Below, piece by piece: positions 1 through 64,000 of a stretch of 64,000 bases of DNA. The translations under genes were made by a program, and so were the position numbers. Position 1 is the stretch's first letter, and each line of letters opens with the position of its first letter. Where the stretch lies: the NCBI GenBank assembly GCA_037431425.1, contig GCA_037431425.1_4129.1; one strand, written 5' to 3'. The notes beneath the pieces were generated by a model. It worked only from the letters and a program-made list of their open reading frames with translations, had not been told where the DNA came from and ran no database searches. This DNA is from a phage.

Positions 1-31
1 TTATGTATTATATGCATATTGAGGACTGATT

Positions 32-862
32 ATGTCATTGGAAAAATTAATCATTTCCGAATTCCGAAAGTACATCATGGATTGTGATAGAGATATCCAG
101 CGTAAATTCAATGAGTATCTTGACAAATATCCATATTTGATGTTTAATCCATTTGAAACTCAAACCGATGTCAAACTTGGATTTTACATTGGGTTTACTC
201 AACGAATTCTACAACAATATGAGATGAAACAAGCAGAGGTTTGGGTAGAAACTGATTCGAATGAGACGAATGTTTTTTACCTGTACTCTTATTATGCGGA
301 AATTGTTAGTTCAATGACACTAGAAGGGTATCTATTCGTCAAAACATCTGATATTGAAAAAATATACATAGAACCTGTATCTTTGGATATGGTTGCCCAG
401 CTTCCAACTATCCAGCAAATGGATGCGAATGAATTAACATATTCAGTATTTGAGTACCTTAATAGAGATGATTTAACTCAAGAAATTGAGAATATGGTTG
501 CATCATATACTTCAACTCTTATATCTAATGGTTCACTTAGAATAGAACTGATTTACGACGATACTAGTACTAATGCAGTACGAGGTACTCGAATTGGAAA
601 AGTTACTATACGTGTTGTCCACAATGATGTAGTACTTGGTTATATTTCGAAACGTGGTCATGACTTGTGTATGATTAACGCATATGTTATTGACCGAAAA
701 GAATGGAACGATTTAATGCAAAAAATCGTAGACGGAAGTGGAATTCGTGATATAATGAGTAATGAAACAGTGATAATTAATCCTGATATTGACTGTGATG
801 TATATTTTCCAGTTCCTGGATTTACACTACGTAATTTTGGTAAATTAAAGGATACAAAATGA
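32..862 (+). CDS. hypothetical protein, 276 aa
   Basis: ATG preceded by GAGGA; long ORF in AT-rich DNA; stop overlaps next start (ATGA). Confidence 0.8.
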   Translation: MSLEKLIISEFRKYIMDCDRDIQRKFNEYLDKYPYLMFNPFETQTDVKLGFYIGFTQRILQQYEMKQAEVWVETDSNETNVFYLYSYYAEIVSSMTLEGYLFVKTSDIEKIYIEPVSLDMVAQLPTIQQMDANELTYSVFEYLNRDDLTQEIENMVASYTSTLISNGSLRIELIYDDTSTNAVRGTRIGKVTIRVVHNDVVLGYISKRGHDLCMINAYVIDRKEWNDLMQKIVDGSGIRDIMSNETVIINPDIDCDVYFPVPGFTLRNFGKLKDTK

Positions 863-1149
863 AAATTTTAGAAGTTTTACTTGAAAAAGATGCATCTGGT
901 ACTCTTTATGTTGGTAATGATTTCAGTCCTGATCCAATTGATATGATGCAGCGTATTCAATCACTGACCCAATCAATTTCAGTTAAACAACCTTTCCTAA
1001 AAGAATTGGAAATTCATTGCGATAAAGACATGGAGCAGCATGATAATGTTATTTCTGATATCAAAAATCTGTTGACAAAGAACGGATATGTGGAGTATAA
1101 TCCTCCTATCGTAATCGTTATCCCTGGCTTCATGAGAGGAACATTGTAA
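859..1149 (+). CDS. hypothetical protein, 96 aa
   Basis: ATGA start/stop overlap with upstream gene. Confidence 0.7.
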   Translation: MKILEVLLEKDASGTLYVGNDFSPDPIDMMQRIQSLTQSISVKQPFLKELEIHCDKDMEQHDNVISDIKNLLTKNGYVEYNPPIVIVIPGFMRGTL

Positions 1150-1418
1150 TGACGAAAGAAGAAATGAAATCTCGCTTAAGCGAACTGAAGAAAGAACGCA
1201 AACTAGTCCGTTTGGACTGGGACATTCTTAACAAAAAAGATGAGCAATCATATGCTAATTGGAGTTCTGATAAAGTTCGCAATGAACGTAGTAAAGAAGA
1301 CAACAAACAGTTTATGGCACTGTCCAAGCGTTTATCTGCATTAAATAGTGAAATTACAGGTCTACAGAAAGAAATTATTTCGATTTTACGAGATGAGATT
1401 AAATCACTATATGAATAA
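1149..1418 (+). CDS. K/E-rich coiled-coil-like protein, 89 aa
   Basis: TAATG overlap with upstream stop; highly charged heptad-like sequence. Confidence 0.7.
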   Translation: MTKEEMKSRLSELKKERKLVRLDWDILNKKDEQSYANWSSDKVRNERSKEDNKQFMALSKRLSALNSEITGLQKEIISILRDEIKSLYE

Positions 1419-1707
1419 ACATGAAGTATTAGTATTAGATAATAAATTCTATGTACCAAATAATGATAGTACTGAAACATATTATCTAATTAATAAAATT
1501 ATGACTGAAACTAATACTTGTTGTCGTCAAATCCCAGGAAAATATGAGTTCAGTCAGTCTATTGGCTATTATCGTTATAATCCATTGGAATCATTTACAA
1601 TTGACGTGTTGAAAGTTATTGACATTCTTGTACAGAATGGGTATAATGAAAAACATGTAAATAACTCAGAATTACCAGTTTCAAAAATCGTTATTTCTAA
1701 TAATTAG
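1411..1707 (+). CDS. hypothetical protein, 98 aa
   Basis: track ORF 1348 trimmed to ATG 1411, which overlaps the upstream stop (ATGAATAA). Confidence 0.65.
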   Translation: MNKHEVLVLDNKFYVPNNDSTETYYLINKIMTETNTCCRQIPGKYEFSQSIGYYRYNPLESFTIDVLKVIDILVQNGYNEKHVNNSELPVSKIVISNN

Positions 1708-1710
1708 AGT

Positions 1711-1738
1711 TGGATAATAACAGATGATGTGATATAAT
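1711..1738 (+). promoter_or_regulatory. sigma70-like promoter TGGATA-N16-TATAAT
   Basis: hexamers read directly; followed by weak hairpin CCTCA/TGAGG plus T-run at 1773-1792, then gene 1821. Confidence 0.4.
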
Positions 1739-1820
1739 GTTTTTATCGGCAGATGTTAAAATGCAAACCATTCCTCAATGATGAGGGTTTTTCATTAAAA
1801 AGAAATAAAAGGGTATTAAA

Positions 1821-2030
1821 ATGGCTAAAGAAATTCACGCACAAGTACTAGATATCACCGACTTCGACCGCACTGTGAACTACATTCAATTCCAGATTCA
1901 TCAAGCTGAAGAAGCTCTTGCTGCATTCCATGGTACTGGTGCAAGGCCAATCCGTTTTGCTCACCTAGTTGCATGGAAGAAAAGTCTACAAGAAGAACTG
2001 TCTGAAATGCGTAAAGCAAATCGTAAGTAA
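1821..2030 (+). CDS. hypothetical protein, 69 aa
   Basis: AAGGG SD; followed by clear terminator. Confidence 0.7.
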   Translation: MAKEIHAQVLDITDFDRTVNYIQFQIHQAEEALAAFHGTGARPIRFAHLVAWKKSLQEELSEMRKANRK

Positions 2031-2039
2031 TCTGTTTTC

Positions 2040-2066
2040 GCCCCATCAATTCTGGTGGGGCATTTT
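2040..2066 (+). terminator. rho-independent terminator
   Basis: GCCCCA...TGGGGC stem followed by ATTTT. Confidence 0.7.
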
Positions 2067-2093
2067 AATCACATAAATCAAGAGGATTAACAC

Positions 2094-2600
2094 ATGAGTA
2101 TCGAGTATTGGTTTTTGTTTGTGTGTATTGGAACACTTGCATTAATTACAATTGGATTAATTTTTAATACAATGATTACTGGAAGTAAGTACTTTAAAAC
2201 ATTCCAGCTTTTAATGTCAGCTATGCCATATAGTGCAGAAGCCGAAAAAACAATTTCTCTAATTTTAGATAAGTTCGATGCAAATCTGTTAGTTGCGAAA
2301 ATTTCGGATTGTGATACAAATATGGTATTTTATTCTACCGTCGATGAATCAGGTTCAAAATATGACAAATGTACATCTCCTATAGTTGCTGAAATTTTTA
2401 TTGGTTCAAAATATTATGCTTACGGGTATGTAAGAAAATATTATTCCGAAGCAAAAGCTGAGTTGACGAAGAAACGCCCATCGGTAAAAACATTAAAACG
2501 TATCATTGCGTTGGAAAATAAACTTCGTGGAGAAATTAATACAAATGAACCACCATCAGTAATTAAATCAAAAAATAATATTGTCGTGGAGTTAGAATGA
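2094..2600 (+). CDS. membrane-anchored protein, 168 aa
   Basis: AGAGGA SD; N-terminal hydrophobic helix (YWFLFVCIGTLALITIGLIF). Confidence 0.75.
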   Translation: MSIEYWFLFVCIGTLALITIGLIFNTMITGSKYFKTFQLLMSAMPYSAEAEKTISLILDKFDANLLVAKISDCDTNMVFYSTVDESGSKYDKCTSPIVAEIFIGSKYYAYGYVRKYYSEAKAELTKKRPSVKTLKRIIALENKLRGEINTNEPPSVIKSKNNIVVELE

Positions 2601-2601
2601 G

Positions 2602-2977: not shown

Positions 2978-3004
2978 ACCCAGTACTAGTACTGGGTATT
3001 TTTA
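2978..3004 (+). terminator. rho-independent terminator built from two AGTACT copies
   Basis: ACCCAGTACT/AGTACTGGGT perfect palindrome followed by ATTTTT. Confidence 0.75.
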
Positions 3005-6843: not shown

Positions 6844-7284
<441 letters not shown>

Positions 7285-7622: not shown

Positions 7623-7661
<39 letters not shown>

Positions 7662-7667
7662 GAATTC

Positions 7668-8391: not shown

Positions 8392-8401
<10 letters not shown>

Positions 8402-8420
8402 TATTCAGTACTGATATAAT
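8392..8420 (+). promoter_or_regulatory. promoter TGGACA-N17-TATAAT with AGTACT in spacer
   Basis: -10 ends 6 nt before tRNA-Ser(GCU) 5' end. Confidence 0.55.
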
Positions 8421-8426
8421 TAATTT

Positions 8427-9043: not shown

Positions 9044-9052
9044 GAAACAAAT

Positions 9053-9310
<258 letters not shown>

Positions 9311-46560: not shown

Positions 46561-46590
46561 AATCCAGTACTATTAAGTACTGGATTATTT
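46561..46590 (+). terminator. terminator hairpin built from two AGTACT copies
   Basis: AATCCAGTACT-ATTA-AGTACTGGATT then ATTT. Confidence 0.6.
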
Positions 46591-48480: not shown

Positions 48481-48503
48481 AAAAGCCAGTATCAAGTACT
48501 GGT
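48481..48503 (-). terminator. rho-independent terminator
   Basis: minus strand ACCAGTACTTGATACTGGC plus TTTT. Confidence 0.7.
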
Positions 48504-48509
48504 ATTTTA

Positions 48510-49859
48510 TTATTGTAATGGAATTTCAGTGAGTGTTTTATATGTACTTCCGTTATACACCCCTCTCCAATATACTTTACCATCAGTACTAACCACTAAT
48601 AATCCATATGTTGTAAACCCAAGAGTACCACCAACATACATAGCATCTTTGATTCTAATACCAATGTCTTCATATGTAAATGACGCGACTGCACCCGCTT
48701 GCCATGAAGGACTAGCGTAGTAATCACTATAAACACCATGTGCTTTATATATTGATGTTGTTCCTGGTTCAAAAATGACAGTTCCACAGTAGTTCATTCG
48801 TATTTTAGTACTGGATGAAGTTGGTACATTTATACCTACATCATCTTTTATCCCTGTGGTTAGGACGTTAAAACCACCCGCCACACGGTTGACGTCATTC
48901 GCACCGATTAAATACATACCAACGTTGTAGCCCATATAAAACACACTAGAGCTTCCATTCCAGAAAGAAAAACCACCACCATTCCCACAGCGATATAGTT
49001 GTGAATTTGAGCAGTACATCATACCTTCGTTTGTCGCATCAAATTCATCTGCTTTTCCTATTGTAGCTACAGTAGTCCAAGTTTTAATTACTTGGTTTGT
49101 ACTAGCTGGTGTTTGTATACCATATCGTATATTATACCCTTTACCGACTATTGTACCATCTTCTAATTTGGCATAAAGTACAGGTCTATTACCAACAAAA
49201 TACATATTATTGTGTGACATGTCTATTGTGCATCTTAATGAAACTACTTTTTGTTTCAATTGATTATCTTTAGTAAAAGAAGTAAAGTAGTAATCTGATG
49301 TTGAGTTGTTTATTAAACCTTGTATTGACAACCCCATATACCAGATTTCTCCCTTACTATTCAAAGCTGCCAAAATACAACTATATTTTGAAGTGTATGT
49401 TGGGTTTACTGAAGTTGCTGGTCCTTTGTCATATCCACCACAGAATACCATCTCCACAACTTCACCTACGTTAGCAAAATAAGAAGATACATTGATAAAA
49501 CCATTTGTTATAAAAGGTGCTGTATTTATACTTGAATGTGTGAATATCCCATTTGCATATACACCACAAAAATGATATGAACCATCATTATCTTGGACTA
49601 TTATTCCATTTGATAGTAACCAAAAATTGTTTACATTTTTTCTTACTAATTCGATTCCTGCCCCATTAGTTGGCGTTATACCAAAAGAAACATATTTTGT
49701 TTGACCAATTCCATATAAATTTCCATTTGATGCTAATATTGCACCAAACCAATTACCACCACCATTCTTGTTATGACCCATACCTATAGAATCAAATTTC
49801 TTAACAGTAGGAGCTTGTACTTTGTTCCCATAATTCACCATTCTTCCAAAAGGTAACAT
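48510..49859 (-). CDS. divergent RCC1-like repeat protein, 449 aa
   Basis: same MLPFGRMVNYGN N-terminus; degenerate G-rich blade repeats. Confidence 0.75.
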   Translation of the reverse strand: MLPFGRMVNYGNKVQAPTVKKFDSIGMGHNKNGGGNWFGAILASNGNLYGIGQTKYVSFGITPTNGAGIELVRKNVNNFWLLSNGIIVQDNDGSYHFCGVYANGIFTHSSINTAPFITNGFINVSSYFANVGEVVEMVFCGGYDKGPATSVNPTYTSKYSCILAALNSKGEIWYMGLSIQGLINNSTSDYYFTSFTKDNQLKQKVVSLRCTIDMSHNNMYFVGNRPVLYAKLEDGTIVGKGYNIRYGIQTPASTNQVIKTWTTVATIGKADEFDATNEGMMYCSNSQLYRCGNGGGFSFWNGSSSVFYMGYNVGMYLIGANDVNRVAGGFNVLTTGIKDDVGINVPTSSSTKIRMNYCGTVIFEPGTTSIYKAHGVYSDYYASPSWQAGAVASFTYEDIGIRIKDAMYVGGTLGFTTYGLLVVSTDGKVYWRGVYNGSTYKTLTEIPLQ

Positions 49860-49900
49860 ATTTCCCTCCTTTATTCATTATACTATATTTAATACTAAAA
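49860..49900 (-). promoter_or_regulatory. conserved leader/promoter box
   Basis: minus strand GTATTAAATATAGTATAATGAATAAAGGAGGGAAATATG; TATAAT at 49877-49882; no -35. Confidence 0.55.
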
Positions 49901-49925
49901 GAAAAAGCCAGTACAGAGTACTGGC
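49901..49925 (-). terminator. rho-independent terminator
   Basis: GCCAGTAC..AGTACTGGC plus T-run on minus strand. Confidence 0.75.
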
Positions 49926-49931
49926 ATTATT

Positions 49932-51083
49932 TTAAATTGGTGAATCTTCAACAAATATAGTACTAGCAGTACCACCTGATACTGGGTTAGTACCACTTGA
50001 ATATATTTTGTTTCCATCTGTCATATATGTTTTACCATAGCAACTTTGGATTTTAACATCTTTGAAATTCAAATCAGGAGTAATAGATTTAGTGTAAGTT
50101 AATACGTTAGTAGTTGAACCTGTACTTAATTGTCCATAGTATGAAGTTGCAGAGTTATTACCAGCAACGTATACGCCAGTATCAGTAATAACAAAGTTCG
50201 AGTAATATCCGTACCCATATCCTATATCTAATATATTTCCTTGTGGTTGATTTACCACTGCTGTTGTCAATATTTGGGTTGTAGCCCCAGTACCAGTCGC
50301 TGCCTGACCATATGTTTGGTCACCACCTGTGTACACTGAAACAACTGACGTGCTTTTGTTTCTTGCAATACCTTGCACCATTCCATTAATTGTACTTATA
50401 AATGCAATAGTGTTAACAGTTGCTGGTAATCTGGATGACAATGTGAAGAATTTATAAGAAGTAGGACCGTCAGTGTTCCCATAAACTTCACCTGTGTAAT
50501 ATAATCTACCACTTTCAGCAATAAATGAACACATGTTTATACCTGCAATAATCCTTTTCGGTATCGCACCAGTTGGTATAATTGATTGTACTAAAGTAGA
50601 AAAACTACTAGTATAAGAATAATTACCAAGCTGTCCTCTTGTGTTATAACCACCACACCAAATGGTCCCATTACTCATAAGTATTGAAATGAAGTTATTT
50701 CCTAGTGATATTTCTGTAATTGTTCCTTGTGATTTGACTTGGTTAATAACGGTTTGCATAGAAGTCCATGCATTAACAGATGACGTACCCATACACACAT
50801 TGTATTGTTGTCCTGTGTATTGATATGTCCCATCTGACTTGTGAATCATTGTAGCATACTGACCACACCATACATCAGTGACATCAGATGCAGTTACAGT
50901 CCATGATGATCTGGCTATATTGTCACCTAAACCCAACTGACCATTTGAATTGTTACCACGGGTGTATAACTTACCATTACTACCCAATACCATAACCCAG
51001 TTATACCCTGCAACTAATTTTTTAATGGCAGCAGGGGATGGTGCAACATTCCCATAATCAAACATTCTAACAAAAGGTAACAT
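49932..51083 (-). CDS. RCC1-like repeat beta-propeller protein, 383 aa
   Basis: LYTRGNNSNGQLGLGDN and IWCGGYNTRGQLGN are canonical RCC1 blade motifs. Confidence 0.85.
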   Translation of the reverse strand: MLPFVRMFDYGNVAPSPAAIKKLVAGYNWVMVLGSNGKLYTRGNNSNGQLGLGDNIARSSWTVTASDVTDVWCGQYATMIHKSDGTYQYTGQQYNVCMGTSSVNAWTSMQTVINQVKSQGTITEISLGNNFISILMSNGTIWCGGYNTRGQLGNYSYTSSFSTLVQSIIPTGAIPKRIIAGINMCSFIAESGRLYYTGEVYGNTDGPTSYKFFTLSSRLPATVNTIAFISTINGMVQGIARNKSTSVVSVYTGGDQTYGQAATGTGATTQILTTAVVNQPQGNILDIGYGYGYYSNFVITDTGVYVAGNNSATSYYGQLSTGSTTNVLTYTKSITPDLNFKDVKIQSCYGKTYMTDGNKIYSSGTNPVSGGTASTIFVEDSPI

Positions 51084-51124
51084 ATTTCCCTCCTTTATTC
51101 ATTATACTATATTTAATACTAAAA
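51084..51124 (-). promoter_or_regulatory. conserved leader/promoter box
   Basis: identical to the 49860 copy. Confidence 0.55.
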
Positions 51125-51125
51125 G

Positions 51126-51150
51126 AAAAAGCCAGTACTTGAGTACTGGC
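51126..51150 (-). terminator. rho-independent terminator
   Basis: GCCAGTACTTGAGTACTGGC (two AGTACT) with flanking A and T runs. Confidence 0.75.
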
Positions 51151-51157
51151 TTTCTTA

Positions 51158-52348
51158 TTACAATTTTCTAGGTGTATCCAGAACATATCTATTTGTTTTA
51201 GGGCCACCATCATCATAAGTTCCGGTTGAATATATATTTTTCATATCAGCAGTTAGGAAAGTACGCAACGAACCGCGATATATTTTTATTTTATCATACA
51301 TAGAATATGTTATTTCTGACGGCAATGGACATGCAGTAAATTTACCAATGGTAGCATCATAACCAACACCCAATGTACCAGCATAACTACTCGCATTTAA
51401 ACCAGTTGCATATACACCTGCACTCGTAACTAGTATACTAGATTGTGCTGGGTATCCAGTATGGATTGAATAATAAGTACCAGGTGGCAATGTGGCACTA
51501 TTATTTCCTAAAACTCCATTAACATTGCTAGATGTAGTTTTATTTCCCCATGCTCCATTATTAGCTAATCCACCAACTAGAAACTGACGTGCTCCTGTAC
51601 TTGGATTCTCTACTAAAGCACTGACAGCACCAAATGAACAAACAGTATATTGTAATGTTTTTGTATATGTGGTACTTGGCTGATATAAAGTATATTCATT
51701 AAATGGTGTCCATGTGGTACTAGTACTTATGCCAGATGTAATACCACCAATATATAAATTATTTTGTTTATCAAACAACATTACACAGTTATATGTTGAC
51801 ATTATTTGTGCAATATCAACATCTGGTGTTACAGCTTTAACAAATGAGCCATCGGTTATTTGTTGAGTTTTTCCAGTACCATCTGCGAATTGTCTAGCAC
51901 TATTCCACCCTGTACTCCATATTGTATTATTATCCATTAAGAAAGTAAACCACGTAGTACCTGCATACATTTGTTTAATTGAAGTACTTGAACTTTGTTT
52001 GTACAAATTTTCAATATATTGGTTATAACTTAAAAACGTAGTAGTACTAGTTTCTAAACCAATATGACTACCATATCCACAATAAAAATAATTTAAGTCA
52101 TTATCTTGAACTAACAAAGTTCCTTGTGTCATCCAGCAATCTTTGATATTTTCTCTAATTAATGTCCACGACCTTACTGCATTATTATTTCCTCTACCAA
52201 ACTTCCCCCAACTATTACTGCCTCGTGCGTATAGTTGACCGTCGGTATAAAGTACAACAACCTCAGTATCAGTTGGTATTATTTTCTTAATTTGAAGTGG
52301 GACGGGTACAATATTCCCGTACTTAACTATTCTTCCAAAAGGTAACAT
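51158..52348 (-). CDS. RCC1-like repeat beta-propeller protein, 396 aa
   Basis: MLPFGRIVKYGNIVP; LYARGSNSWGKFGRGNN. Confidence 0.8.
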   Translation of the reverse strand: MLPFGRIVKYGNIVPVPLQIKKIIPTDTEVVVLYTDGQLYARGSNSWGKFGRGNNNAVRSWTLIRENIKDCWMTQGTLLVQDNDLNYFYCGYGSHIGLETSTTTFLSYNQYIENLYKQSSSTSIKQMYAGTTWFTFLMDNNTIWSTGWNSARQFADGTGKTQQITDGSFVKAVTPDVDIAQIMSTYNCVMLFDKQNNLYIGGITSGISTSTTWTPFNEYTLYQPSTTYTKTLQYTVCSFGAVSALVENPSTGARQFLVGGLANNGAWGNKTTSSNVNGVLGNNSATLPPGTYYSIHTGYPAQSSILVTSAGVYATGLNASSYAGTLGVGYDATIGKFTACPLPSEITYSMYDKIKIYRGSLRTFLTADMKNIYSTGTYDDGGPKTNRYVLDTPRKL

Positions 52349-52386
52349 ATCCCCTCCTTATTCATTATACTATATTTAATCAAAAA
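52349..52386 (-). promoter_or_regulatory. conserved leader/promoter box
   Basis: minus strand ..AAATATAGTATAATGAATAAGGAGGGGATATG. Confidence 0.55.
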
Positions 52387-52387
52387 T

Positions 52388-52410
52388 AAAAGCCAGTATC
52401 AAGTACTGGC
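52388..52410 (-). terminator. rho-independent terminator
   Basis: GCCAGTATCAAGTACTGGC. Confidence 0.7.
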
Positions 52411-52424
52411 ATAGTTTTATAATA

Positions 52425-53531
52425 TTATTTCGGCATCGTAATTGCAGACCATGAATTTGTAGTAATTGGACCTGGTATGTACACTAAAGAACCACATGCA
52501 TAAATTTGTCTATTCCCATCATACACAACACTAAAGTTAGTACAAGTAAACAATGACGAATTTAATGGATTGTAAGTATCTAATGTTAGTGTATTCACCC
52601 ACTTATTTGAACCTAGACCACCTGACCTACCAAATGCACCAGTACTGTATATCTTACCTTCAGTTGTTGCATATATATTAACATATGAAGTTGAACTGGA
52701 TTTAGCTATTTTATGTATCTTACTATCAATAGCACTGGAGTTAAATGTAAAAGGATATATTTCTACGTTAGTTGATGAACCATTACCGAGTTGACCAGAA
52801 TACTGCAAGCCAGCGACGTATGTACCACCACCTGAATATGCTATAGTACTAGTACTGTTACCTCCCATTATTTTAACACTAGTTAAACGACTTACTAAAG
52901 TAGTGTACTGACCTTTACTAACACCTAGTGAACCATAACTACTAGTACCACATCCAATAAGGTTACCGTTGGATGTTAAGATTAATGTGTTGTTTTGTGT
53001 ACCATATATATCAGCAACTTCATTTGTACCAGTATTCAGTACTAACACAAAAGCACTCTGTGAATTAGGATATCCACCACCGAGTGAATAGTTACTGTTC
53101 ATGCCTCTTCCATAAACCTTTGTACCACTAGCATCTACGTAGTGCATCGTATCTGAACCAATTGATATCATTTTAATATTAGATATGTGTGGAAATGAAG
53201 AAGTAACATCTAAACCACCCAAGGGGATTGCAGTATTACCCGTACCTAACTGAGAAGTAACTCCGTGCATTCTGAACTCTTCTCCTTTGAGATACAGAAG
53301 ATTGTACCCACCAGCCCATGCATCAGAAACACCCTCTGCAACTAATATCCAATTATTTTTTTCCGCTGTACCAACGGCATTCAACTGCCAATATGAATTA
53401 TCTCCACATCCATATAATGTACCATCACTATATAGTACGTACAAATTATTGGTTCCACAAAATACTTTCTTGATCGTTATACCTTCTGGAGCTATATTTC
53501 CATAGGTCATTATTCTTGCAAAAGGTAACAT
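52425..53531 (-). CDS. RCC1-like repeat beta-propeller protein, 368 aa
   Basis: MLPFARIMTYGNIAP; LYGCGDNSYWQLN, LIGCGTSSYGSLGV. Confidence 0.8.
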   Translation of the reverse strand: MLPFARIMTYGNIAPEGITIKKVFCGTNNLYVLYSDGTLYGCGDNSYWQLNAVGTAEKNNWILVAEGVSDAWAGGYNLLYLKGEEFRMHGVTSQLGTGNTAIPLGGLDVTSSFPHISNIKMISIGSDTMHYVDASGTKVYGRGMNSNYSLGGGYPNSQSAFVLVLNTGTNEVADIYGTQNNTLILTSNGNLIGCGTSSYGSLGVSKGQYTTLVSRLTSVKIMGGNSTSTIAYSGGGTYVAGLQYSGQLGNGSSTNVEIYPFTFNSSAIDSKIHKIAKSSSTSYVNIYATTEGKIYSTGAFGRSGGLGSNKWVNTLTLDTYNPLNSSLFTCTNFSVVYDGNRQIYACGSLVYIPGPITTNSWSAITMPK

Positions 53532-53570
53532 ATCCCCTCCTTATTCATTATACTATATTTAATACAAATA
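53532..53570 (-). promoter_or_regulatory. conserved leader/promoter box
   Basis: same box as other copies. Confidence 0.55.
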
Positions 53571-53572
53571 AG

Positions 53573-53595
53573 AAAAGCCAGTATCAAGTACTGGC
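53573..53595 (-). terminator. rho-independent terminator
   Basis: GCCAGTATCAAGTACTGGC. Confidence 0.7.
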
Positions 53596-53601
53596 CTATA
53601 T

Positions 53602-54771
53602 TTAAACTGGCGAATCTAATATAAATTCTAAACTACTAATGCCACCATATGTGACATCTGTTCCCGTGCTATATACAAAATTACCATCAGTTATATAAGT
53701 TCGGTTATAACTACCTGCCATCTGTGACTTACTATAATCAAACCCATCAGGTACGATTGCTTTGGTATATACTAATGCATTAGTAGATGTACCAATACCT
53801 AACATACCAGCTTGTGTAGATTGATTGTAGCCGCAACAATATATACCATCTGTTGTAGCAATAACTTGGTTATAATATGAAGTATTGTTAGCAATGCTTA
53901 CTACATCACCAGGTGGCATTAGTGATGCTGTTTGTACCTCAAATGCTCTATAATCTTTGAGAGAACCATCTTTCCCATCTGCTTGTGCACCAAATATTCT
54001 TGAACCACCATTTGCGATGATAGTTTTACCAGTAGGATCAGTGCCTATTGCCATTGCCATTGAAGTACCATTATTCACATAGTACTTTATATTAATTGTA
54101 TTACTTAAGCTGGTAGGAGCACCATAATATATATTATATAACTTACTTCCTGAACTTGTAACTGCATTGACTCTTCCTGTATAAAATAACCATCCTTGGT
54201 TTGTAACATAACCGTGCATTAAATTACTTGCAAACAATTTAACAGGTAATTGATTTGCTACGGTAGGAACAGTACTTTTGACGAATCTACCAGAAACATA
54301 GTTAATTGTTGTTCCATCACCCAACTGACCATCCGACCCTACTCCAGTACTCCATATTGTTTGGTCTGATAGTAACACACTTGTAGTCTGATAACTAATG
54401 GCTATATCTAATATTGGTAATGTTAATGTATTGAATATAGGCATAGCAGATGTCCATATTGATACTCCTGACCCTTTCATACCAACAGTTGTTGAACTTC
54501 CACTGTACCATATTTCATTATTGCTTTTCTTAACAACTATCGACGTGGCTCCCATCCAAAAATCTTCAACACCAGAAGTACTAAAAGTCCATGTAGTAAC
54601 AGTATTTTTGTGACCTAAACCCAAAATACCATATGCATTATCACCACGCACATATAAATCACCACTGTTTGTTAAAACAGCAACATTATCGTTGTTAGCA
54701 AGTATTTTTTTAATATTTGGTTTAGCAGGTGCAATATTCCCGTACTTAACCATCCTCGCAAAAGGTAACAA
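53602..54771 (-). CDS. RCC1-like repeat beta-propeller protein, 389 aa
   Basis: TTG start with GGAGA SD and non-conserved leader; LYVRGDNAYGILGLGHK, IWSTGVGSDGQLGDG. Confidence 0.8.
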   Translation of the reverse strand: MLPFARMVKYGNIAPAKPNIKKILANNDNVAVLTNSGDLYVRGDNAYGILGLGHKNTVTTWTFSTSGVEDFWMGATSIVVKKSNNEIWYSGSSTTVGMKGSGVSIWTSAMPIFNTLTLPILDIAISYQTTSVLLSDQTIWSTGVGSDGQLGDGTTINYVSGRFVKSTVPTVANQLPVKLFASNLMHGYVTNQGWLFYTGRVNAVTSSGSKLYNIYYGAPTSLSNTINIKYYVNNGTSMAMAIGTDPTGKTIIANGGSRIFGAQADGKDGSLKDYRAFEVQTASLMPPGDVVSIANNTSYYNQVIATTDGIYCCGYNQSTQAGMLGIGTSTNALVYTKAIVPDGFDYSKSQMAGSYNRTYITDGNFVYSTGTDVTYGGISSLEFILDSPV

Positions 54772-54810
54772 AATTAAATCTCCAAAATTAAAATAATTAT
54801 ATAGTATTTA

Positions 54811-54843
54811 CAAAAATACCAGTACATATTTCAGTACTGGTAT
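54811..54843 (-). terminator. rho-independent terminator
   Basis: ACCAGTAC-ATATTTCA-GTACTGGT. Confidence 0.65.
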
Positions 54844-54847: not shown

Positions 54848-55969
54848 TTAAAAGGGCAACGGTAACTCAGTAAAAGAACTTACGTCCGGTAAACCATACA
54901 TTGAATTAGCATCACCACAGTAATACCACTTCGTAGAATCATGTACCACCGATAAACGCAGTGCACATAACACTTCCTGTATGTCATTAAACACCATCGG
55001 GACTAACTCATATGTATCTGCAAATGAAGATACACCACCACTCGCATGAAAAGTATTTGTCCCAGCATAAAATAACTGATTAGTGTTCTTACCCACAGCA
55101 AATGTAATCAAATTCCCATCATTCTCCCATAAAGAAGAAAACTTATCAACACTACCAGAAAGCTCTGTGTAAGTACTCGTAATGGCATTAACCGCCGCCG
55201 CATTACCCATCTGTTTATTCAAGTTCTGCCCAGCAATAAAATATCTCGTTCGTGCACTAGAATCAGTATATAATAACCCAGTGTTCGTGGTCATCATTCC
55301 AATGTCCTTAATCGTCATACCAGGCTGTGAATAACTTAGATACGAAGTTAAATTAACATTATTACCCAACGAACCGTTAGAACTCATGCCACAACGATGT
55401 AATATACCACTTGTATCAACGTAGATAGTACTAACACCACTCGTATACAACTCTTGTACATTATTCGCAATAAACACAGCAGTCGCCTTATTACTAACCC
55501 CACCAAATGATAGGTTATTATCAAATCCCTTAGCGTATAATTGATTATTAGTAGTCAATAATCCAATCGTGTAATAAGACATTTTCATATCCCTTACTGT
55601 ACTCAAATCTACTGCCCCAAATTGATACGTAACATCTGTCCATTTGAAAATCTGTGCACTACCAACACCACCCGTTTCAAACCATTTGTCACCACAGTAC
55701 AATATGCGATTATCCTTAGTAAAGATAACTGTTAACGCTCCACTACCACACGCAAACTTTACATCACTTCTAACCTTCGTCCAATCACGTACATAGGTAG
55801 TGGTGTTATTACCTATACCTAACTTGCCATAACGGTTATAACCACGCACCCATAAATCACCACTCTTAGTAATTAATAGTAATGCGTCTCCTGTACTTAT
55901 TATTCGAAATCCCGATCTAGGATCAGGTACAATATTCCCGTACTTAACCATTCTCCCAAAAGGTAACAT
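54848..55969 (-). CDS. RCC1-like repeat beta-propeller protein, 373 aa
   Basis: MLPFGRMVKYGNIVP; LWVRGYNRYGKLGIGNN. Confidence 0.8.
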   Translation of the reverse strand: MLPFGRMVKYGNIVPDPRSGFRIISTGDALLLITKSGDLWVRGYNRYGKLGIGNNTTTYVRDWTKVRSDVKFACGSGALTVIFTKDNRILYCGDKWFETGGVGSAQIFKWTDVTYQFGAVDLSTVRDMKMSYYTIGLLTTNNQLYAKGFDNNLSFGGVSNKATAVFIANNVQELYTSGVSTIYVDTSGILHRCGMSSNGSLGNNVNLTSYLSYSQPGMTIKDIGMMTTNTGLLYTDSSARTRYFIAGQNLNKQMGNAAAVNAITSTYTELSGSVDKFSSLWENDGNLITFAVGKNTNQLFYAGTNTFHASGGVSSFADTYELVPMVFNDIQEVLCALRLSVVHDSTKWYYCGDANSMYGLPDVSSFTELPLPF

Positions 55970-56942: not shown

Positions 56943-57128
56943 ATGAATCACATAAGCTACTACTACCAACAACTATCCGACAGAGACAAGTACAGTCACA
57001 ACTCCCATGTGTGGTACTACAAACGCGGCAGTATAAGAGACAAACATCATTACTTCAGTGCTGCTATAACAGAAGTACTAACAACTAAGTACACGTACAG
57101 AGCAGTACTGAAACTTATCTCTATATAA
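56943..57128 (+). CDS. small tandem-array protein (LKLISI subtype), 61 aa
   Basis: ends AVLKLISI. Confidence 0.65.
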   Translation: MNHISYYYQQLSDRDKYSHNSHVWYYKRGSIRDKHHYFSAAITEVLTTKYTYRAVLKLISI

Positions 57129-57136
57129 GGTACTAT

Positions 57137-57322
57137 ATGAATACATTTGAGTACTATACCAATAAACTATCTATGCCTGAAAGATCTCATCTCTATGTGT
57201 GGAGAAATGCGTATAAAAACGGAAATAAACTTATACAAAGAAATTCCCTTACAGTGTGTACCAATTTAATTAACGCAGAGTACCGCACATATATTGAAGT
57301 ACTGAAACTCATCTCTATCTAA
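57137..57322 (+). CDS. small tandem-array protein (LKLISI subtype), 61 aa
   Basis: MNTFEYYTNKL..EVLKLISI. Confidence 0.65.
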   Translation: MNTFEYYTNKLSMPERSHLYVWRNAYKNGNKLIQRNSLTVCTNLINAEYRTYIEVLKLISI

Positions 57323-57330
57323 GGTACTCT

Positions 57331-57510
57331 ATGCAAGAATTCTATATCTATAATCTCCAGCACAAAGATAGATACAACTATAATCAATTCCAAAGGTACT
57401 ACACCGTCGGGAACATCAAAGATAAAAAACGATACCTACTATCATGTACTGTAGATGCACAAAACAAAAAGTACACGTACAGAGAAGTACTGAAACTAAT
57501 TTCTATTTGA
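57331..57510 (+). CDS. small tandem-array protein (LKLISI subtype), 59 aa
   Basis: hand-translated MQEFYIYNLQ..EVLKLISI; below track cut-off. Confidence 0.6.
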   Translation: MQEFYIYNLQHKDRYNYNQFQRYYTVGNIKDKKRYLLSCTVDAQNKKYTYREVLKLISI

Positions 57511-57518
57511 GGTAATAT

Positions 57519-57707
57519 ATGAATACTTTTGAGTACTACTTCAATAAACTAAATTCCATAGAACAAAATATGTACAATTCATATATTAAGTACTATCAAT
57601 CATCTGCACCTGGAATTAAAAATATATCAATAAAGATTATCACTAACCGTGTACTGACATCTGAACGTTATATGTATATGGATGCACTGAAACTCATCTC
57701 TATGTAA
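57519..57707 (+). CDS. small tandem-array protein (LKLISI subtype), 62 aa
   Basis: MNTFEYYFNKL..DALKLISM. Confidence 0.65.
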   Translation: MNTFEYYFNKLNSIEQNMYNSYIKYYQSSAPGIKNISIKIITNRVLTSERYMYMDALKLISM

Positions 57708-60534: not shown

Positions 60535-61027
60535 GTAGAATCACAGAATGATTATATATGATTCAGTACTGCCCCAAAAGTATTCAGTACTGAAGAATTA
60601 CCCCTGAATGATTCAGTACTGATATGCCACTAAGTAGGCAGAGGAAGTCTGCCGTACTTTGTAGTTTCCAAGCTCCTTTTCCATTTTGCAAATTACATCA
60701 AATGTAATCAAAAGTAATCACGTAATGATTAGTACTGAAATATTAGTTTCATCTTTTTTCAAATACCTTTTTACCCTTCGGGGTAAATGTATTTTTACCC
60801 ATTTACCTTTGGGGTAAAATCCCATTACCCCTTGAGGCTCCAGCAAAAAGTTGGAAAGTACTCCATCCTAAATCTCGATCCTAAAAATTTTGGAGTACCT
60901 ATGAAATAAAAGTTGGATCTTCGAAAGTTGAAATTTACGTTGGGACGTTTATGATTTGTGGGATATAATGATGTTTGTAGTCGGGTAGTTCTCAAGAATA
61001 TCAGTACTGAATGGTGAAAGAAAGTTA

Positions 61028-61055
61028 TTGACATTATGATTCAGTACTGTATAAT
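61028..61055 (+). promoter_or_regulatory. promoter TTGACA-N16-TATAAT with AGTACT in spacer, inside ORF-free region
   Basis: read directly; downstream has GNRA hairpin CTGTC-GTGA-GACAG and no ORF. Confidence 0.6.
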
Positions 61056-61435
61056 GTTCTACATAGAGAGATGAGTTGCTGCGAACAATTCATTTACTCT
61101 ACCTCCTGTCGTGAGACAGTACAGAAAAGATAGTTCCTCCTGTGGTGGTACATCTTTTTGAACCTCATATGAAAATCGTAATAACAGTACTGGTATTAAC
61201 AGAATGGTATCAGTACTGACTTTAATCTAATACATTATACCACCAGCTTGTGCTGGTGGATTCCCTCTAACAGTATTCAGTACTACATGATAGTCTTCAT
61301 CCTCCTAGGGTAACATAGTGAGGGCTATTGTGGGAGTACTGAATACTCCTTTCAAAAGATAGAATAATGGTATAGTACCGACGGATTTTGGGCGTAGTTA
61401 CCCTGGGTGTATTTTGGACGTAGATATGTCTAGCC

Positions 61436-61578
61436 CTCCAGAAGTCTGGAAGTAAAGATGGCTATCTATCTAGACGGCTAAACGGCTAGATTTCTAGATG
61501 GCTGTATGGCTAGACGTTTGGATGGCTAAACGGCTAAACGGCTAGATGGTTACACGTCTGGAAGTATAGACGGCTAAA
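61436..61578. repeat. iteron block: 8 GGCTA cores bracketed by direct repeats GTCTGGAAGTA
   Basis: GGCTA at 61460, 61476, 61484, 61508, 61524, 61532, 61540, 61572 (consensus ACGGCTAAA/ACGGCTAGA); GTCTGGAAGTA at 61444-61454 and 61556-61566. Confidence 0.85.
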
Positions 61579-61927
61579 TCAAAATTTTTATTTTGTTTTT
61601 CCAATAGTTCCCCTACCGCGTGAGGATATTTTTTCCCCGCAGTATCTGGAGTTAGATTTTTCTGAATCTGGAATCATTATCTAATAAACTGGGGGCAATG
61701 TCAACCGCCTGGATGAATATTTTTAAAAAATAATCTAGTACTAAATTTTGGGCGTAACTATGCACCCGGTGGGCTTGAGTCTTTCTCGACTTGATGAAAT
61801 AATTATATCAGTACTGAAAAAATAAAGCAATACCCTAAACGCAAAAAAAATTTAATTAATTTGCTTGCTATTCTGGGCCGTACTATGGTACTATTAATTC
61901 AGTACTGAGAAAGTGCTTTTACCTGCT

Positions 61928-61999
61928 AGGGTGCGGGAGTGTATCCTTTTTAAATTTTATGAATTTTGGGCAGATCTCCGCACCCTGTGGGTTAGTGCC
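61928..61999. repeat. GC-rich dyad element (long hairpin), copy A
   Basis: AGGGTGCGGGAG ... CTCCGCACCCT arms around an AT-rich 45-nt core; shares the 16-mer GGTGCGGGAGTGTATC with the 63898 copy. Confidence 0.7.
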
Positions 62000-62210
62000 T
62001 TGTGTCCGGCTTATGTAGTAATTATACGCTTTTTCAGTACTGAGTCAATACCTAAAAACAAAATAATTGAAAATAATTTAACGCGTTTAAACGGCCCGTA
62101 AAGCCCTGGAATGATTAGAATGGTGCAAATGTATAGCTTAGGTGTAATATCTCGTTAGAATGCGACTGAGGCCGTTTTACGGGGTATAGGGATGATTTAG
62201 TGGATTGATT

Positions 62211-62298
62211 CAGTACTGAATAATAGTACTCCTATATAGAAAGATAGTTCCCCTGGATGGTTGCAGTACTGAATAATAGTACTCCTATATAGAAAGAA
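62211..62298. repeat. 35-bp direct repeat x2
   Basis: CAGTACTGAATAATAGTACTCCTATATAGAAAGA at 62211 and 62264. Confidence 0.85.
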
Positions 62299-62329
62299 AA
62301 CTATTTTAAAAAGTATTTGTAGAAAGTAC

Positions 62330-62388
62330 TTGCACCGTACTGATAAAAGCGTATAATGTTTTACATCGAGAGCGGGAGCACTTCCCGC
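62330..62388 (+). promoter_or_regulatory. conserved promoter plus 5' hairpin cassette, copy 1
   Basis: TTGCAC-N16-TATAAT, then TTTTACATCGAGAGCGGGAGCACTTCCCGC (stem GCGGGA/TCCCGC). Confidence 0.7.
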
Positions 62389-62412
62389 TACACATTAAGA
62401 GAGATTAAAACG

Positions 62413-62775
62413 ATGGCGACTCAAATCAATAAAATTATTGCTAACCTGGTTAACTTCCGTGAAGAGATGAAAGGTCTTCCGGCTGAAACGGTAAAAATTC
62501 ACATTTCAGCTTATCGGGAACTTATTGCAATGTTACCGCTTAAGCGTGAACAATACGCCGCTACCGTGATGCTTGATGCGATGATCAATAAGATGATCGC
62601 CAGTGATTTAACGATGGTTTATCAGTACATGGGCGAAAATTTCGCGGTGTCTGGTAAGCCAGTACCAGGGATGGCAACTACTGAGGAATTGCACGGTTTA
62701 AATTTAAAACAAGATGCATGGGATAATATGCCTCGTTTCCTGGTATGGGCTGACAGTGGCAAAATTTACAAATAA
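62413..62775 (+). CDS. hypothetical protein, 120 aa
   Basis: trimmed to ATG 62413 (MATQINK) downstream of the cassette; higher GC than the rest of the window. Confidence 0.75.
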   Translation: MATQINKIIANLVNFREEMKGLPAETVKIHISAYRELIAMLPLKREQYAATVMLDAMINKMIASDLTMVYQYMGENFAVSGKPVPGMATTEELHGLNLKQDAWDNMPRFLVWADSGKIYK

Positions 62776-62789
62776 GTTTAATAAAGTAC

Positions 62790-62875
62790 TTGCCAACTAA
62801 GTTTAAAAGCGTATAATACTTTACATCAGGTGCAACGGGAAGTTTAAAAACTTCCCTATAGGGGAATAGTTCCCC
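62790..62875 (+). promoter_or_regulatory. promoter plus 5' hairpin cassette, copy 2 (variant)
   Basis: TTGCCA-N16-TATAAT; hairpins GGGAAG..CTTCCC and GGGGA-ATAGT-TCCCC. Confidence 0.65.
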
Positions 62876-62896
62876 ACTATATAAGAGGATTAAAAA

Positions 62897-63136
62897 ATGG
62901 CTAAATCAAAAATGTTCTTAGGTCACAAAAACAAAACTCATTGGAATGTAAGCCTTTGGATTAATAACGATGAATCATTATACCGGTTGGCCCTGGACTT
63001 TATTGCCGCTAATACTAATCGCAATGATGCGGCCCGTCATATGATGTTATTTTTAGAACAGACTGGACAAGATAAAACACCGGACGGATTCAAATATAGC
63101 ACTACTGCGATCCGTGCGGCGATGGTTGGAATGTAA
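62897..63136 (+). CDS. hypothetical protein, 79 aa
   Basis: AGAGGA SD. Confidence 0.75.
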   Translation: MAKSKMFLGHKNKTHWNVSLWINNDESLYRLALDFIAANTNRNDAARHMMLFLEQTGQDKTPDGFKYSTTAIRAAMVGM

Positions 63137-63149
63137 TAGAATTTATTTA

Positions 63150-63184
63150 AAGTACTATCGCAAAAAATGATAGTACTTTATAAT
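63150..63184 (+). promoter_or_regulatory. AGTACT-based hairpin abutting TATAAT
   Basis: AAGTACTATC..GATAGTACTT stem followed directly by TATAAT. Confidence 0.5.
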
Positions 63185-63221
63185 AGTGTTTTATTCATAC
63201 ACCAACGATAAGGGCAATAGC

Positions 63222-63488
63222 ATGAATATTAAGTATTTTGCGACGCGTGAACAAGCTCGGAAGGCGGCGAAAGTGGAAGGTGCAACGTTTAAAGATATGG
63301 GCATACAATCGGAACGTGGTAAACGTTGGGCCATTGTAAAGCGTAGTACAGCCAGATCATTACAGTACTGGTTAGCGGCTTTAAAAAGTCCTGCTAGTGT
63401 ATCGCGTCGAGTGGTAGAAATAAAGCTCGACCGTAAGGGGAATCGTGTTACCGTGTACCGTACTAAAAAGATAGCAGTACTTGAATAA
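63222..63488 (+). CDS. basic hypothetical protein, 88 aa
   Basis: trimmed to ATG 63222 with AAGGG SD. Confidence 0.7.
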   Translation: MNIKYFATREQARKAAKVEGATFKDMGIQSERGKRWAIVKRSTARSLQYWLAALKSPASVSRRVVEIKLDRKGNRVTVYRTKKIAVLE

Positions 63489-63495
63489 AAAGAAC

Positions 63496-63554
63496 TTGCA
63501 AACTATGTTTAATGGCGTATAATGTTTTACATCGAGAGCGGGAACACTTCCCGC
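63496..63554 (+). promoter_or_regulatory. conserved promoter plus 5' hairpin cassette, copy 3
   Basis: TTGCAA-N16-TATAAT, then TTTTACATCGAGAGCGGGAACACTTCCCGC; near-identical to copy 1. Confidence 0.7.
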
Positions 63555-63575
63555 CTATAAACTGGAGTAATAAAA

Positions 63576-63806
63576 ATGACTAATATGTATATGACTGAAG
63601 TTAAAACCGTAAAAGATACTACCACGAATAAAACTACTTACTTACAGCGGATCTGCGGTGTATGGCAACGTATCAGCAAATCAAAGTACTATAAATTAAC
63701 ATCATATGCCAATCGTTCGGATTCATTCAGTACTGAAATAAAAGGTAATAAAGTACACCAATACGGCACTTATTATTATTATAGCCTGGACGCGATTGCA
63801 GTATAA
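63576..63806 (+). CDS. hypothetical protein, 76 aa
   Basis: GGAG SD. Confidence 0.7.
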   Translation: MTNMYMTEVKTVKDTTTNKTTYLQRICGVWQRISKSKYYKLTSYANRSDSFSTEIKGNKVHQYGTYYYYSLDAIAV

Positions 63807-63836
63807 GTAGTTTACAAATCTTTACAATTGCCGGTA

Positions 63837-63865
63837 TTGACTTAAAATGTCAGTACTGGCATAAT
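63837..63865 (+). promoter_or_regulatory. promoter TTGACT-N17-CATAAT with AGTACT in spacer
   Basis: read directly; transcribes GC-rich dyad copy B. Confidence 0.55.
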
Positions 63866-63885
63866 GTATCTATTGAAACGAACAA

Positions 63886-63966
63886 TTTGGCCCACGGGGT
63901 GCGGGAGTGTATCTATAGCAAAATTAGTTTAGTATAATTACAATTGTGCACCCGGTGGGTTAGCTG
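63886..63966. repeat. GC-rich dyad element, copy B
   Basis: CCCACGGGGTGC (63891-63902) pairs with GCACCCGGTGGG (63948-63959), 11/12; same 16-mer as copy A. Confidence 0.7.
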
Positions 63967-64000
63967 TTGTCATGGGGTATATTATGCCAGTACTTGATAA

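Follow-up and report, generated by a model that had tools for sequence, protein, structure and literature searches.

AGTACT is the most over-represented hexamer of a jumbo-phage region

The DNA examined here is a 64,000-base stretch of a phage contig (GCA_037431425.1_4129.1; hereafter the window), which shares 97.7% identity with Escherichia phage ph0011 and 87-90% with 121Q, PBECO4, UE-S1, SP27 and other Asteriusvirus jumbo phages (~350 kb). In 121Q, the counterpart of the window is annotated mostly with small hypothetical genes, together with a phage sigma factor, tRNAs, a protein kinase, endonuclease V and a minus-strand array of RCC1-like paralogues. Throughout this region the palindrome AGTACT recurs, in coding DNA, promoters, hairpin stems and a gene-free terminal segment alike, and it is this hexamer that forms the subject of the present analysis. 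A preliminary description had estimated by eye some 180 sites, about 8-fold above the 20-25 expected at roughly one-third GC; exact counting bears these figures out, with 184 sites at a GC content of 33.7% and an observed/expected ratio of 8.4 under an independent-base model (21.8 expected).

Markov models of order 1, 2 and 3 give ratios of 9.7 (19.0 expected), 5.0 (36.7 expected) and 2.45 (75.1 expected), and the maximal-order (order 4) model leaves a ratio of 1.21 (151.6 expected; Poisson p 0.006). The maximal-order ratio is low only because the sub-words AGTAC and GTACT, the former followed by T in 66% of its occurrences and the latter preceded by A in 67%, owe their own excess to the motif; the figure of 1.21 is therefore no refutation of the enrichment. 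By z-score, AGTACT ranks first among all 4096 hexamers, followed by the overlapping words CAGTAC and GTACTG. Just outside the hexamer, C is favoured at -1 (41%) and G at +6 (50%), and TT...AA more weakly beyond them; CAGTACTG occurs 43 times as opposed to 0.72 +/- 0.85 times in dinucleotide-preserving shuffles.

Under heuristic gene calls there are 2.5 copies of AGTACT per kb of coding sequence and 5.5 per kb outside it, against an expectation of 0.34 per kb. The coding sites fall in all three frames (62/39/44), show the same C(-1)/G(+6) preference, and include the in-frame codon pairs described previously (ST, 56; x-V-L, 39; [KQE]-Y-x, 36). Permuting synonymous codons within genes yields 41 +/- 5.6 copies compared with 131 observed in coding DNA (z ~16), a shortfall indicating that the excess is written at the DNA level, beyond protein sequence and codon usage. 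Of the remaining 6-bp palindromes, about 25 have no copy in the window, most of them rich in GC; GGTACC, CGTACG, AGCGCT, AGGCCT and CTGCAG are among them. The usual avoidance of restriction sites thus coexists with enrichment of AGTACT.

The AGTACT signature is shared by RaK2-like phages of Enterobacterales

The 350-kb relative EC22.5-2 contains 913 copies of AGTACT where ~100-119 are expected (7.7-fold), and each of its 10-kb bins is enriched (11-69 copies versus 3.4 expected). This record is marked 'unverified', and 121Q, PBECO4 and fEgEco12 agree with it. One-mismatch neighbours of the motif stand at 0.5-2.0 times expectation in the 350-kb relative, as compared with 7.7 times for AGTACT, and the two variants AGTACA and TGTACT number 274 and 196; GTAC itself is 2.5-fold enriched. 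The deamination neighbours AGTATT and AATACT occur at 1.07 times expectation. Biased repair of the very-short-patch type was considered as a source of the sites and rejected, since these neighbours show no depletion.

AGTACT is also the top hexamer in samples from Klebsiella phage RaK2 (114 copies versus 11-17 expected in 50 kb spanning replication genes), Cronobacter phage GAP32 (64 versus 7-10 in 30 kb) and Pectobacterium phage CBB (65 versus 8-10 in 30 kb), such that the enriched genera include Asteriusvirus, Alcyoneusvirus and Mimasvirus. No enrichment is seen in the related Pseudomonas phage PA5oct (1 versus 9 and 4 versus 10-13 expected in two samples), in T4 (3 versus 8.5) or in a 50-kb sample of Escherichia coli K-12 (3 versus 5-12); this last comparison is a check on the host chromosome that had been suggested earlier. 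The enrichment is not a host or compositional effect. It is a trait of the RaK2-like phages of Enterobacterales, shared neither by the host genome nor by low-GC DNA or coliphages in general. We also considered CTGCAG as a substitute palindrome in PA5oct and rejected it: the word appears 14 times versus 2.3 expected in a 30-kb sample (100-130 kb, late genes), but only 5 times versus 4-10 in the 40-kb terminal repeat. In the window itself CTGCAG is absent (0 copies).

Constraint is confined to the six bases of the motif

Alignment of the window to EC22.5-2 (48.4 kb, 86.4% nucleotide identity) allows conservation to be followed site by site. AGTACT is intact in place at 129 of 155 sites (83%), as opposed to 48% for the average hexamer (p 2e-19), and ranks first in this respect among the 184 hexamers with at least 40 copies. 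Identity is 0.93-0.97 over exactly the six core positions, all of which are equally constrained, and 0.81-0.85 at the adjoining bases. Third codon positions within the motif are 93.4% identical, compared with 75.8% overall and 79.8% in flanks of 7-30 nt (Fisher p 3e-8), and non-coding positions within it are 97% identical versus 85-87%. Restriction of the constraint to the core agrees with the positive selection that the preliminary description had invoked. Extended flanking similarity of the kind expected of REP (repetitive extragenic palindromic)-like or mobile elements was not found among AGTACT copies, information content and conservation being at background beyond the hexamer plus one flanking base.

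A weaker form of the same pattern is visible between genera. At 58-66% amino-acid identity, 20-28% of AGTACT sites coincide, compared with 12.5-16% for all hexamers, and random placement predicts ~0.1-0.15 coincidences. Where the encoded residues are conserved, AGTACT is kept at 26 of 41 sites in RaK2, 9 of 13 in GAP32 and 8 of 14 in CBB, versus ~34% for hexamers generally. In-place conservation within and between genera thus indicates that individual AGTACT copies are under moderate purifying constraint; copies turn over slowly as their density is held. Conservation alone does not separate selection from a repair bias that restores AGTACT.

A terminal repeat places AGTACT at fixed promoter positions

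In the Asteriusvirus fEgEco12, genome ends mapped by PhageTerm and restriction digests define direct terminal repeats of 20,993 bp (PMC13070987). Position 1 of fEgEco12 aligns to window position 60,633, and the alignment continues to 64,000 at 91.5% identity. The 'ORF-free 60.3-62.3 kb region' singled out in the preliminary description for its dense sites is therefore where the right unique end meets the repeat's gene-free leader, and the window, having the left genome end (by homology) in its interior, spans a concatemer or collapsed-repeat junction. The density reported for this region holds, with 19 copies in 2 kb. The whole fEgEco12 repeat carries 138 copies (6.6 per kb; 4.5 per kb in coding and 10.9 per kb in non-coding DNA). 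AGTACT density drops to zero over the 4 kb following the terminal repeat of fEgEco12 and, as seen in EC22.5-2, is then ~3 per kb, declining to 1.5-2 per kb over the half that holds the late genes.

Within the fEgEco12 repeat, nearly every tiny gene has its own sigma70-type promoter, in which AGTACT takes up one or both of two fixed positions: across the upstream edge of the -35 box (AGTAC-TTGCAA or AGTACT-A-TTGACA) and next to the -10 box (AGTACT-N1-2-TATAAT). In many promoters the two copies occur together, and the starts of such pairs are separated by 20-22 bp in fEgEco12, the window and CBB alike. Distances from AGTACT to a -10-like hexamer peak at 7/8 nt (n=26) and 27 nt (n=20) in fEgEco12, on the transcribed strand only, and the terminal repeat of CBB (86 copies in 12 kb) shows peaks at 7 nt (n=15) and 27/28 nt (n=17). 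When 2.9 million IMG/VR contigs were scanned for exact matches to AGTACTTGCAA-N6-12-AGTACT-N-TATAAT, 16 stretches in 10 contigs were returned, namely RaK2, CBB, GAP32, 121Q, four others between 357 and 371 kb long and two shorter ones of 109 kb and 17 kb; in all but the 17-kb contig, AGTACT occurs at 3-7.7 per kb around the composite pattern. Apart from that 17-kb contig, the pattern is confined to RaK2-like contigs. Published accounts of CBB and RaK2 describe only generic RpoD-like promoters with an 'UP-like element' (RaK2: PMC3622015).

Inspection of the window reveals AGTACT 1-2 nt before the -10 box in 6 of 32 strong sigma70-like promoters, so that the promoter-spacer context noted previously is real for a subset and not for all; others belong to a different class with a conserved TCGGTCAGCC spacer. 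Paired copies in terminator stems, likewise noted before, recur between 44 and 57 kb, where 15 terminator-like hairpins are found as compared with 4.8 +/- 2.4 expected, nearly all with GCCAGTAC...GTACTGGC stems. These combine a GC-containing hairpin (CCAGTAC/GTACTGG stems) with a T-run, as intrinsic terminators do, and cover only ~10 of the 184 sites. Genome-wide, ~6% of AGTACT copies are suitably spaced from a -10- or -35-like sequence, and in the central 240 kb the fraction is 4-5%, equal in both orientations; internal promoters were for this reason rejected as an explanation of the dispersed copies. Promoter and terminator contexts together account for a minority of AGTACT sites. Spacing departs weakly from random: outside the terminal repeat the gaps have a coefficient of variation of 0.885, the largest gap is 2.1 kb compared with ~2.8 kb under exponential spacing (our calculation from the mean gap and n), and the sole extra peak in pair distance, at 20-22 bp, arises from the two-site promoters.

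Strand-specific variants replace the palindrome in two neighbouring blocks

Roughly 25 kb past the window end lies an 8.3-kb block of ~17 small same-strand genes in which the palindrome gives way to a one-sided variant, with 44-45 copies of AGTACA on the coding strand, 0 TGTACT and 0-1 AGTACT. The block is present in both EC22.5-2 (58,324-66,610) and PBECO4 (116,613-124,306), its copies fall in three frames and in non-coding DNA, and no tandem repeats were found in it. The preceding 4-5 kb, directly past the terminal repeat (fEgEco12 21000-25000, equivalent to EC22.5-2 50.9-55.9 kb), comprises ~17 tandem genes of ~70 amino acids with no AGTACT. Here nearly every GTAC is part of TGTACT, about one per paralogue, at an A-V-L position in which GCT is used and not GCA, and the full palindrome seems to be avoided.

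A lineage-restricted methyltransferase does not account for the enrichment

The preliminary description had linked AGTACT to a methyltransferase with an NPPF motif at position 41464. Its motifs mark the product as a putative N6-adenine methyltransferase, and it has no Pfam hit. Among the matches listed, the gene occurs in ph0011 alone of the Asteriusviruses; two further records at 60-80% identity were not identified, and other homologues, in rV5-like, phAPEC8-like and Campylobacter phages, are at most 37% identical. A GmrSD_N/DUF262 (DndB-like) gene lies immediately upstream, the pair spanning 39,988-42,300. This island has a single AGTACT in 3.2 kb, a scarcity that suggests it was probably acquired recently. 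We rejected the enzyme as the cause of the enrichment, given that 121Q, EC22.5-2, RaK2, GAP32 and CBB are equally enriched; because the gene is lineage-restricted it cannot explain a clade-wide property, and the suggested link fails. Nor does AGTACT behave as the target of a ScaI-like restriction-modification system, as the methyltransferase is absent from most enriched genomes and the motif is enriched while other palindromes are avoided.

A symmetric phage factor is a tentative candidate for reading the site

Having established where the motif occurs and how it is conserved, we tentatively propose that AGTACT, optimally CAGTACTG, is a selectively maintained double-stranded DNA site read by a two-fold symmetric, sequence-specific factor particular to RaK2-like phages, most likely a small phage-encoded dimer. 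A symmetric reader of duplex DNA is proposed because the site is a strict two-fold palindrome, because constraint falls on exactly six bases, and because pairs of sites lie two helical turns apart across the -35 box in a geometry common to E. coli and Pectobacterium phages. In such a scheme, one or two AGTACT copies at the pre-early and early promoters of the terminal repeat would act as operators, 20-22 bp apart on one face of the helix. Occupancy of these operators would more likely shut the promoters off (early shut-off) than activate them, repression being favoured because AGTACT overlaps RNA polymerase contact points. Phage DNA is ~40 times denser in AGTACT than host DNA, and the ~800 dispersed copies, out of ~900 per genome, may serve to keep the reader distributed over the phage genome. 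The fixed two-position placement at early promoters, kept across genera, fits the regulatory-protein binding site that was among the explanations first put forward, an interpretation that is, overall, partly supported.

Several observations weigh against this proposal. More than 85% of AGTACT copies lie outside promoters and are not explained by an operator role, and six bases make a short site for a helix-turn-helix dimer of the classical kind. Pfam searches of the 117 open reading frames of the window found no helix-turn-helix, ribbon-helix-helix or AbrB-type domain, the sigma factor and HNH nucleases being the sole DNA-binding matches, and tblastn searches of the 350-kb relative with HU, TF1, Arc, MetJ, YefM, Phd, PrlF, MazE and AbrB, as well as SlmA, returned no match. 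Two early-region proteins mentioned in the CBB paper, one PrlF-like and the other called a 'transcriptional regulator', are treated here as leads only. In addition, the AGTACA block is not predicted by a symmetric double-stranded reader, and for that reason leaves room for a reading of AGTAC(W) on one strand.

In that alternative, the functional unit would be AGTAC(W) in single-stranded DNA or RNA (for example, a primase start site, a nuclease or recombination control element or an RNA signal), with the palindrome simply supplying it on both strands. The 8.3-kb block of EC22.5-2 and PBECO4, with its 45 AGTACA on the coding strand, the neighbouring 5-kb block carrying TGTACT only, and a spacing slightly more regular than random all accord with such a unit. 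Elsewhere, however, the full palindrome is preferred (913 AGTACT versus 274 AGTACA and 196 TGTACT), all six positions are equally constrained, copies sit upstream of transcription starts at fixed promoter positions, and the TGTACT copies, at about one per tandem paralogue, are not independent of one another; we therefore consider a polar unit quite unlikely. A further idea, which we regard as similarly doubtful, is that AGTACT forms a genome-wide 'self' label, read by a phage factor to tell phage from host DNA. T4 marks its own DNA by base modification, and a label of this kind would do likewise by sequence. It might spare phage DNA from phage-induced breakdown of host DNA, or direct or silence transcription; the same factor would double as a switch for the pre-early promoters of the terminal repeat, and the AGTACA block would mark a region that is handled differently.

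Also unlikely, in our judgement, is a model in which an orphan DNA methyltransferase or some other modifying enzyme, present across the clade, has AGTACT or a part of it as its target. The modification would keep the motif abundant, for example by marking DNA epigenetically, by labelling it as self or by biasing repair. There is precedent in the cyanobacterial HIP1 palindrome (GCGATCGC), which is hyper-abundant, selected and tied to orphan methyltransferases (PMC4390886, PMC5861425); moreover, the 350-kb relative encodes a 286-amino-acid C5-methyltransferase kept across Asteriusviruses and a 173-amino-acid NPPY phage Dam-like enzyme, and RaK2 DNA has been reported to be methylated (PMC3622015). 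Yet nothing connects either of these two enzymes to AGTACT, the methyltransferase of the window is lineage-restricted, and the RaK2 bisulfite data point to methylation at CpG, which AGTACT lacks, as it does GATC (PMC3622015). Ten restriction enzymes cut fEgEco12 DNA as predicted (PMC13070987), AGTATT and AATACT at 1.07 times expectation give no very-short-patch repair signature, and modification alone leaves the fixed promoter geometry unexplained. A host Enterobacterales protein recruited or titrated by the phage, such as the nucleoid-occlusion factor SlmA, is a distinctly improbable reader. The core of the SlmA site (GTGAGTACTCAC) is identical to the phage motif (PMC3020112), and enrichment is confined to relatives growing on Escherichia, Klebsiella, Cronobacter and Pectobacterium, to the exclusion of the Pseudomonas relative PA5oct; but SlmA binding depends strongly on G1 and T2 and allows C at position 6 (PMC3020112), whereas position 6 is strictly T in the phage, where AGCGCT has 0 copies. 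GTR flanks are depleted (19 of 1826 half-sites versus ~53 by our estimate from base composition; G at -3 is 9%), and T4, which shares the host, shows no enrichment. SlmA itself was rejected as the reader on the flanking bases: its binding requires G1, T2, A4 and G5 of GTGAGTACTCAC (PMC3020112), and GTRAGYRCTYAC has 0 matches in 350 kb. Least probable of all is that the sites have no function and arise from compositional, codon or mutational bias, from repeated promoter and terminator modules or from gene duplication. The maximal-order Markov ratio of only 1.21, the presence of some copies in duplicated terminators and paralogue leaders, and the 2.5-fold excess of GTAC speak for a by-product. 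This explanation is largely refuted by the synonymous-shuffle z of ~16, by unusual conservation at synonymous positions that is confined to the hexamer, by a promoter context for only ~6% of sites, by enrichment that extends to each 10-kb bin of the 350 kb and to four genera, and by one-mismatch neighbours at 0.5-2.0 times expectation as opposed to 7.7 for the motif.

Relation to known DNA-site systems

Like HIP1 (GCGATCGC) and other cyanobacterial palindromes, AGTACT is a short palindrome many-fold over-represented genome-wide, found in coding DNA in all frames beyond what codon usage provides and conserved above background (PMC4390886, PMC5861425). It differs from HIP1 in being a hexamer/octamer of a virus instead of a cellular genome, in having no known cognate methyltransferase, in being additionally fixed in promoters and terminator stems, and in departing weakly from random spacing. 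The proposed operators resemble those of yefM-yoeB, where the small dimeric repressor YefM reads paired TGTACA hexamers over the -10 box (PMC1802561): both consist of paired 6-bp palindromes with a GTAC core, set at a fixed spacing and overlapping core promoter elements. In contrast to yefM-yoeB, the phage copies are 20-22 bp and not 12 bp apart, have A/T and not T/A as outer bases, and occur in dozens of promoters plus ~900 dispersed copies; the paired-operator geometry is present, and no YefM/Phd homologue as cognate protein was found by tblastn in the 350-kb phage relative.

The SlmA site (GTGAGTACTCAC) has an identical central AGTACT and is likewise a palindrome specific to a host clade and scattered over the chromosome (PMC3020112). 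Unlike it, the phage motif lacks G1, T2 and a purine at position 3, which are depleted in its flanks, and is strict where SlmA is tolerant. SPO1 TF1 and phi29 p6 are DNA-binding proteins that their phages make in abundance; they coat the genome and keep early promoters repressed, and the clustering of early promoters in a terminal redundancy under a genome-wide binding protein would be a shared feature; these proteins, however, recognise modified DNA or bendability and not a discrete palindrome, and tblastn found no TF1/HU homologue. Chi, KOPS and DNA uptake sequences also comprise hundreds to thousands of selected copies and allow own and foreign DNA to be told apart. Those motifs are asymmetric and strand-skewed, whereas AGTACT, as its own reverse complement, is neither, and only the AGTACA block outside the window is polar.

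Our literature search returned no paper mentioning enrichment of AGTACT or CAGTACTG in these phages, which makes AGTACT, as far as the literature searched shows, the first phage counterpart of the HIP1 phenomenon. RaK2-like jumbo phages (121Q, PBECO4, phAPEC6, RaK2, GAP32, CBB) are candidates for phage therapy, with more than 80% of their genes and their regulatory programme unknown. A motif with ~900 copies per genome, under purifying selection across four genera and built into practically all pre-early promoters, points to a DNA-reading component that is central to these phages and so far undescribed, and for which a TTCAGTACTGAA duplex is a ready bait and a TTCAGTGCTGAA duplex its comparison. 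The AGTACT consensus can serve the annotation of early promoters and of the genome terminus, and the motif provides a diagnostic signature for the clade in metagenomes; infection time courses, in turn, make the function of a HIP1-like phenomenon testable in these phages.

Coordinates and further features of the window

Table 1. Positions of AGTACT-related and associated features in the window (1 to 64,000).
Position	Strand	Feature	Basis or remark
1..64000	.	184 dispersed AGTACT sites, preferred context CAGTACTG / TTCAGTACTGAA	Counts, Markov models, shuffles
2979..2996	+	Perfect 18-bp palindrome CCCAGTACTAGTACTGGG followed by T-run, terminator-like
7253..7281	+	Sigma70-like promoter TTGACT-N9-AGTACT-G-TATAAT, motif beside -10 box, in tRNA cluster	Sequence
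7633-7662, 8392-8421, 24139-24167, 36725-36753, 61028-61056		Promoters of the same class as 7253 (AGTACT beside -10 box)
41,398-42,300 (likely start 41,464)		Putative N6-adenine methyltransferase, gamma-class by motifs DQYYTNP, EPCVGTGSF, NPPF	Sequence motifs
46561..46586	.	Terminator-like hairpin AATCCAGTACT-ATTA-AGTACTGGATT
48485..54843 (48485-48503, 49907-49925, 51126-51155, 52392-52410, 53575-53597, 54816-54843)	.	Bidirectional terminator-like hairpins with GCCAGTAC...GTACTGGC stems, between RCC1-like paralogues
60564..60621 (starts 60564, 60585, 60614)	.	Three TTCAGTACTG copies	68 to 13 nt before the position aligning with the mapped fEgEco12 left end
60633..64000	+	Start of ~21-kb direct terminal repeat (pre-early region)	Homology to fEgEco12 termini (PMC13070987)
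60633-62355		Gene-free terminal leader, ~10 AGTACT per kb	Within terminal repeat
62325..62358 (same class at 62785-62818)	+	Terminal-repeat promoter, motif overlapping -35 box: AGTAC-TTGCAC...GCG-TATAAT
63151..63184	+	Two-site terminal-repeat promoter AGTACT-N15-AGTACT-T-TATAAT, copies 21 bp apart start to start

Two stretches of the window run longest without an AGTACT: 12,802-16,112 (3.3 kb), which holds two virion protein genes, and 20,436-22,808 (2.4 kb), which holds the phage sigma factor gene. On the minus strand, 47,291-55,969 contains seven tandem RCC1-like paralogues, each followed by its own bidirectional terminator of the CCAGTACTGG type; in 121Q these are labelled 'DNA condensation' proteins, on weak grounds. 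Paralogous small genes at 57,074-57,540 have leaders of the form AGTAC-TGAAAC-N13-TATAtAAGG upstream. TGAAAC(G) is the divergent '-35' element reported for middle promoters of GAP32 and CBB, and it may overlap AGTACT.

Within the terminal repeat, ~0.5-0.9 kb of window 62,863-63,808 has 85-89% DNA identity to phAPEC8-like phages (~146 kb) and to entries that bear the label Campylobacter phage, a similarity that indicates horizontal exchange between unrelated myoviruses. In the fEgEco12 repeat, a conserved 5' leader hairpin (GGGGAGAA-NNNN-TTCTCCCC) lies right after the start sites of many promoters and just before the ribosome-binding site (e.g. 9025-9108 and 10041-10139), and is probably present in the window beyond 62.3 kb as well. 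Finally, a second class of promoter that carries no AGTACT, TTGACT-TCGGTCAGCCCTTTTTGC-TATAAT, is found at window 29,863-29,892, 38,907-38,936, 42,311-42,340 and 42,882-42,911, and at 9489, 13478, 16746 and 19495 in the fEgEco12 terminal repeat, where its copies are followed by a conserved ...CCCACAGGGTGCA... segment that has no open reading frame and possibly represents small RNAs.

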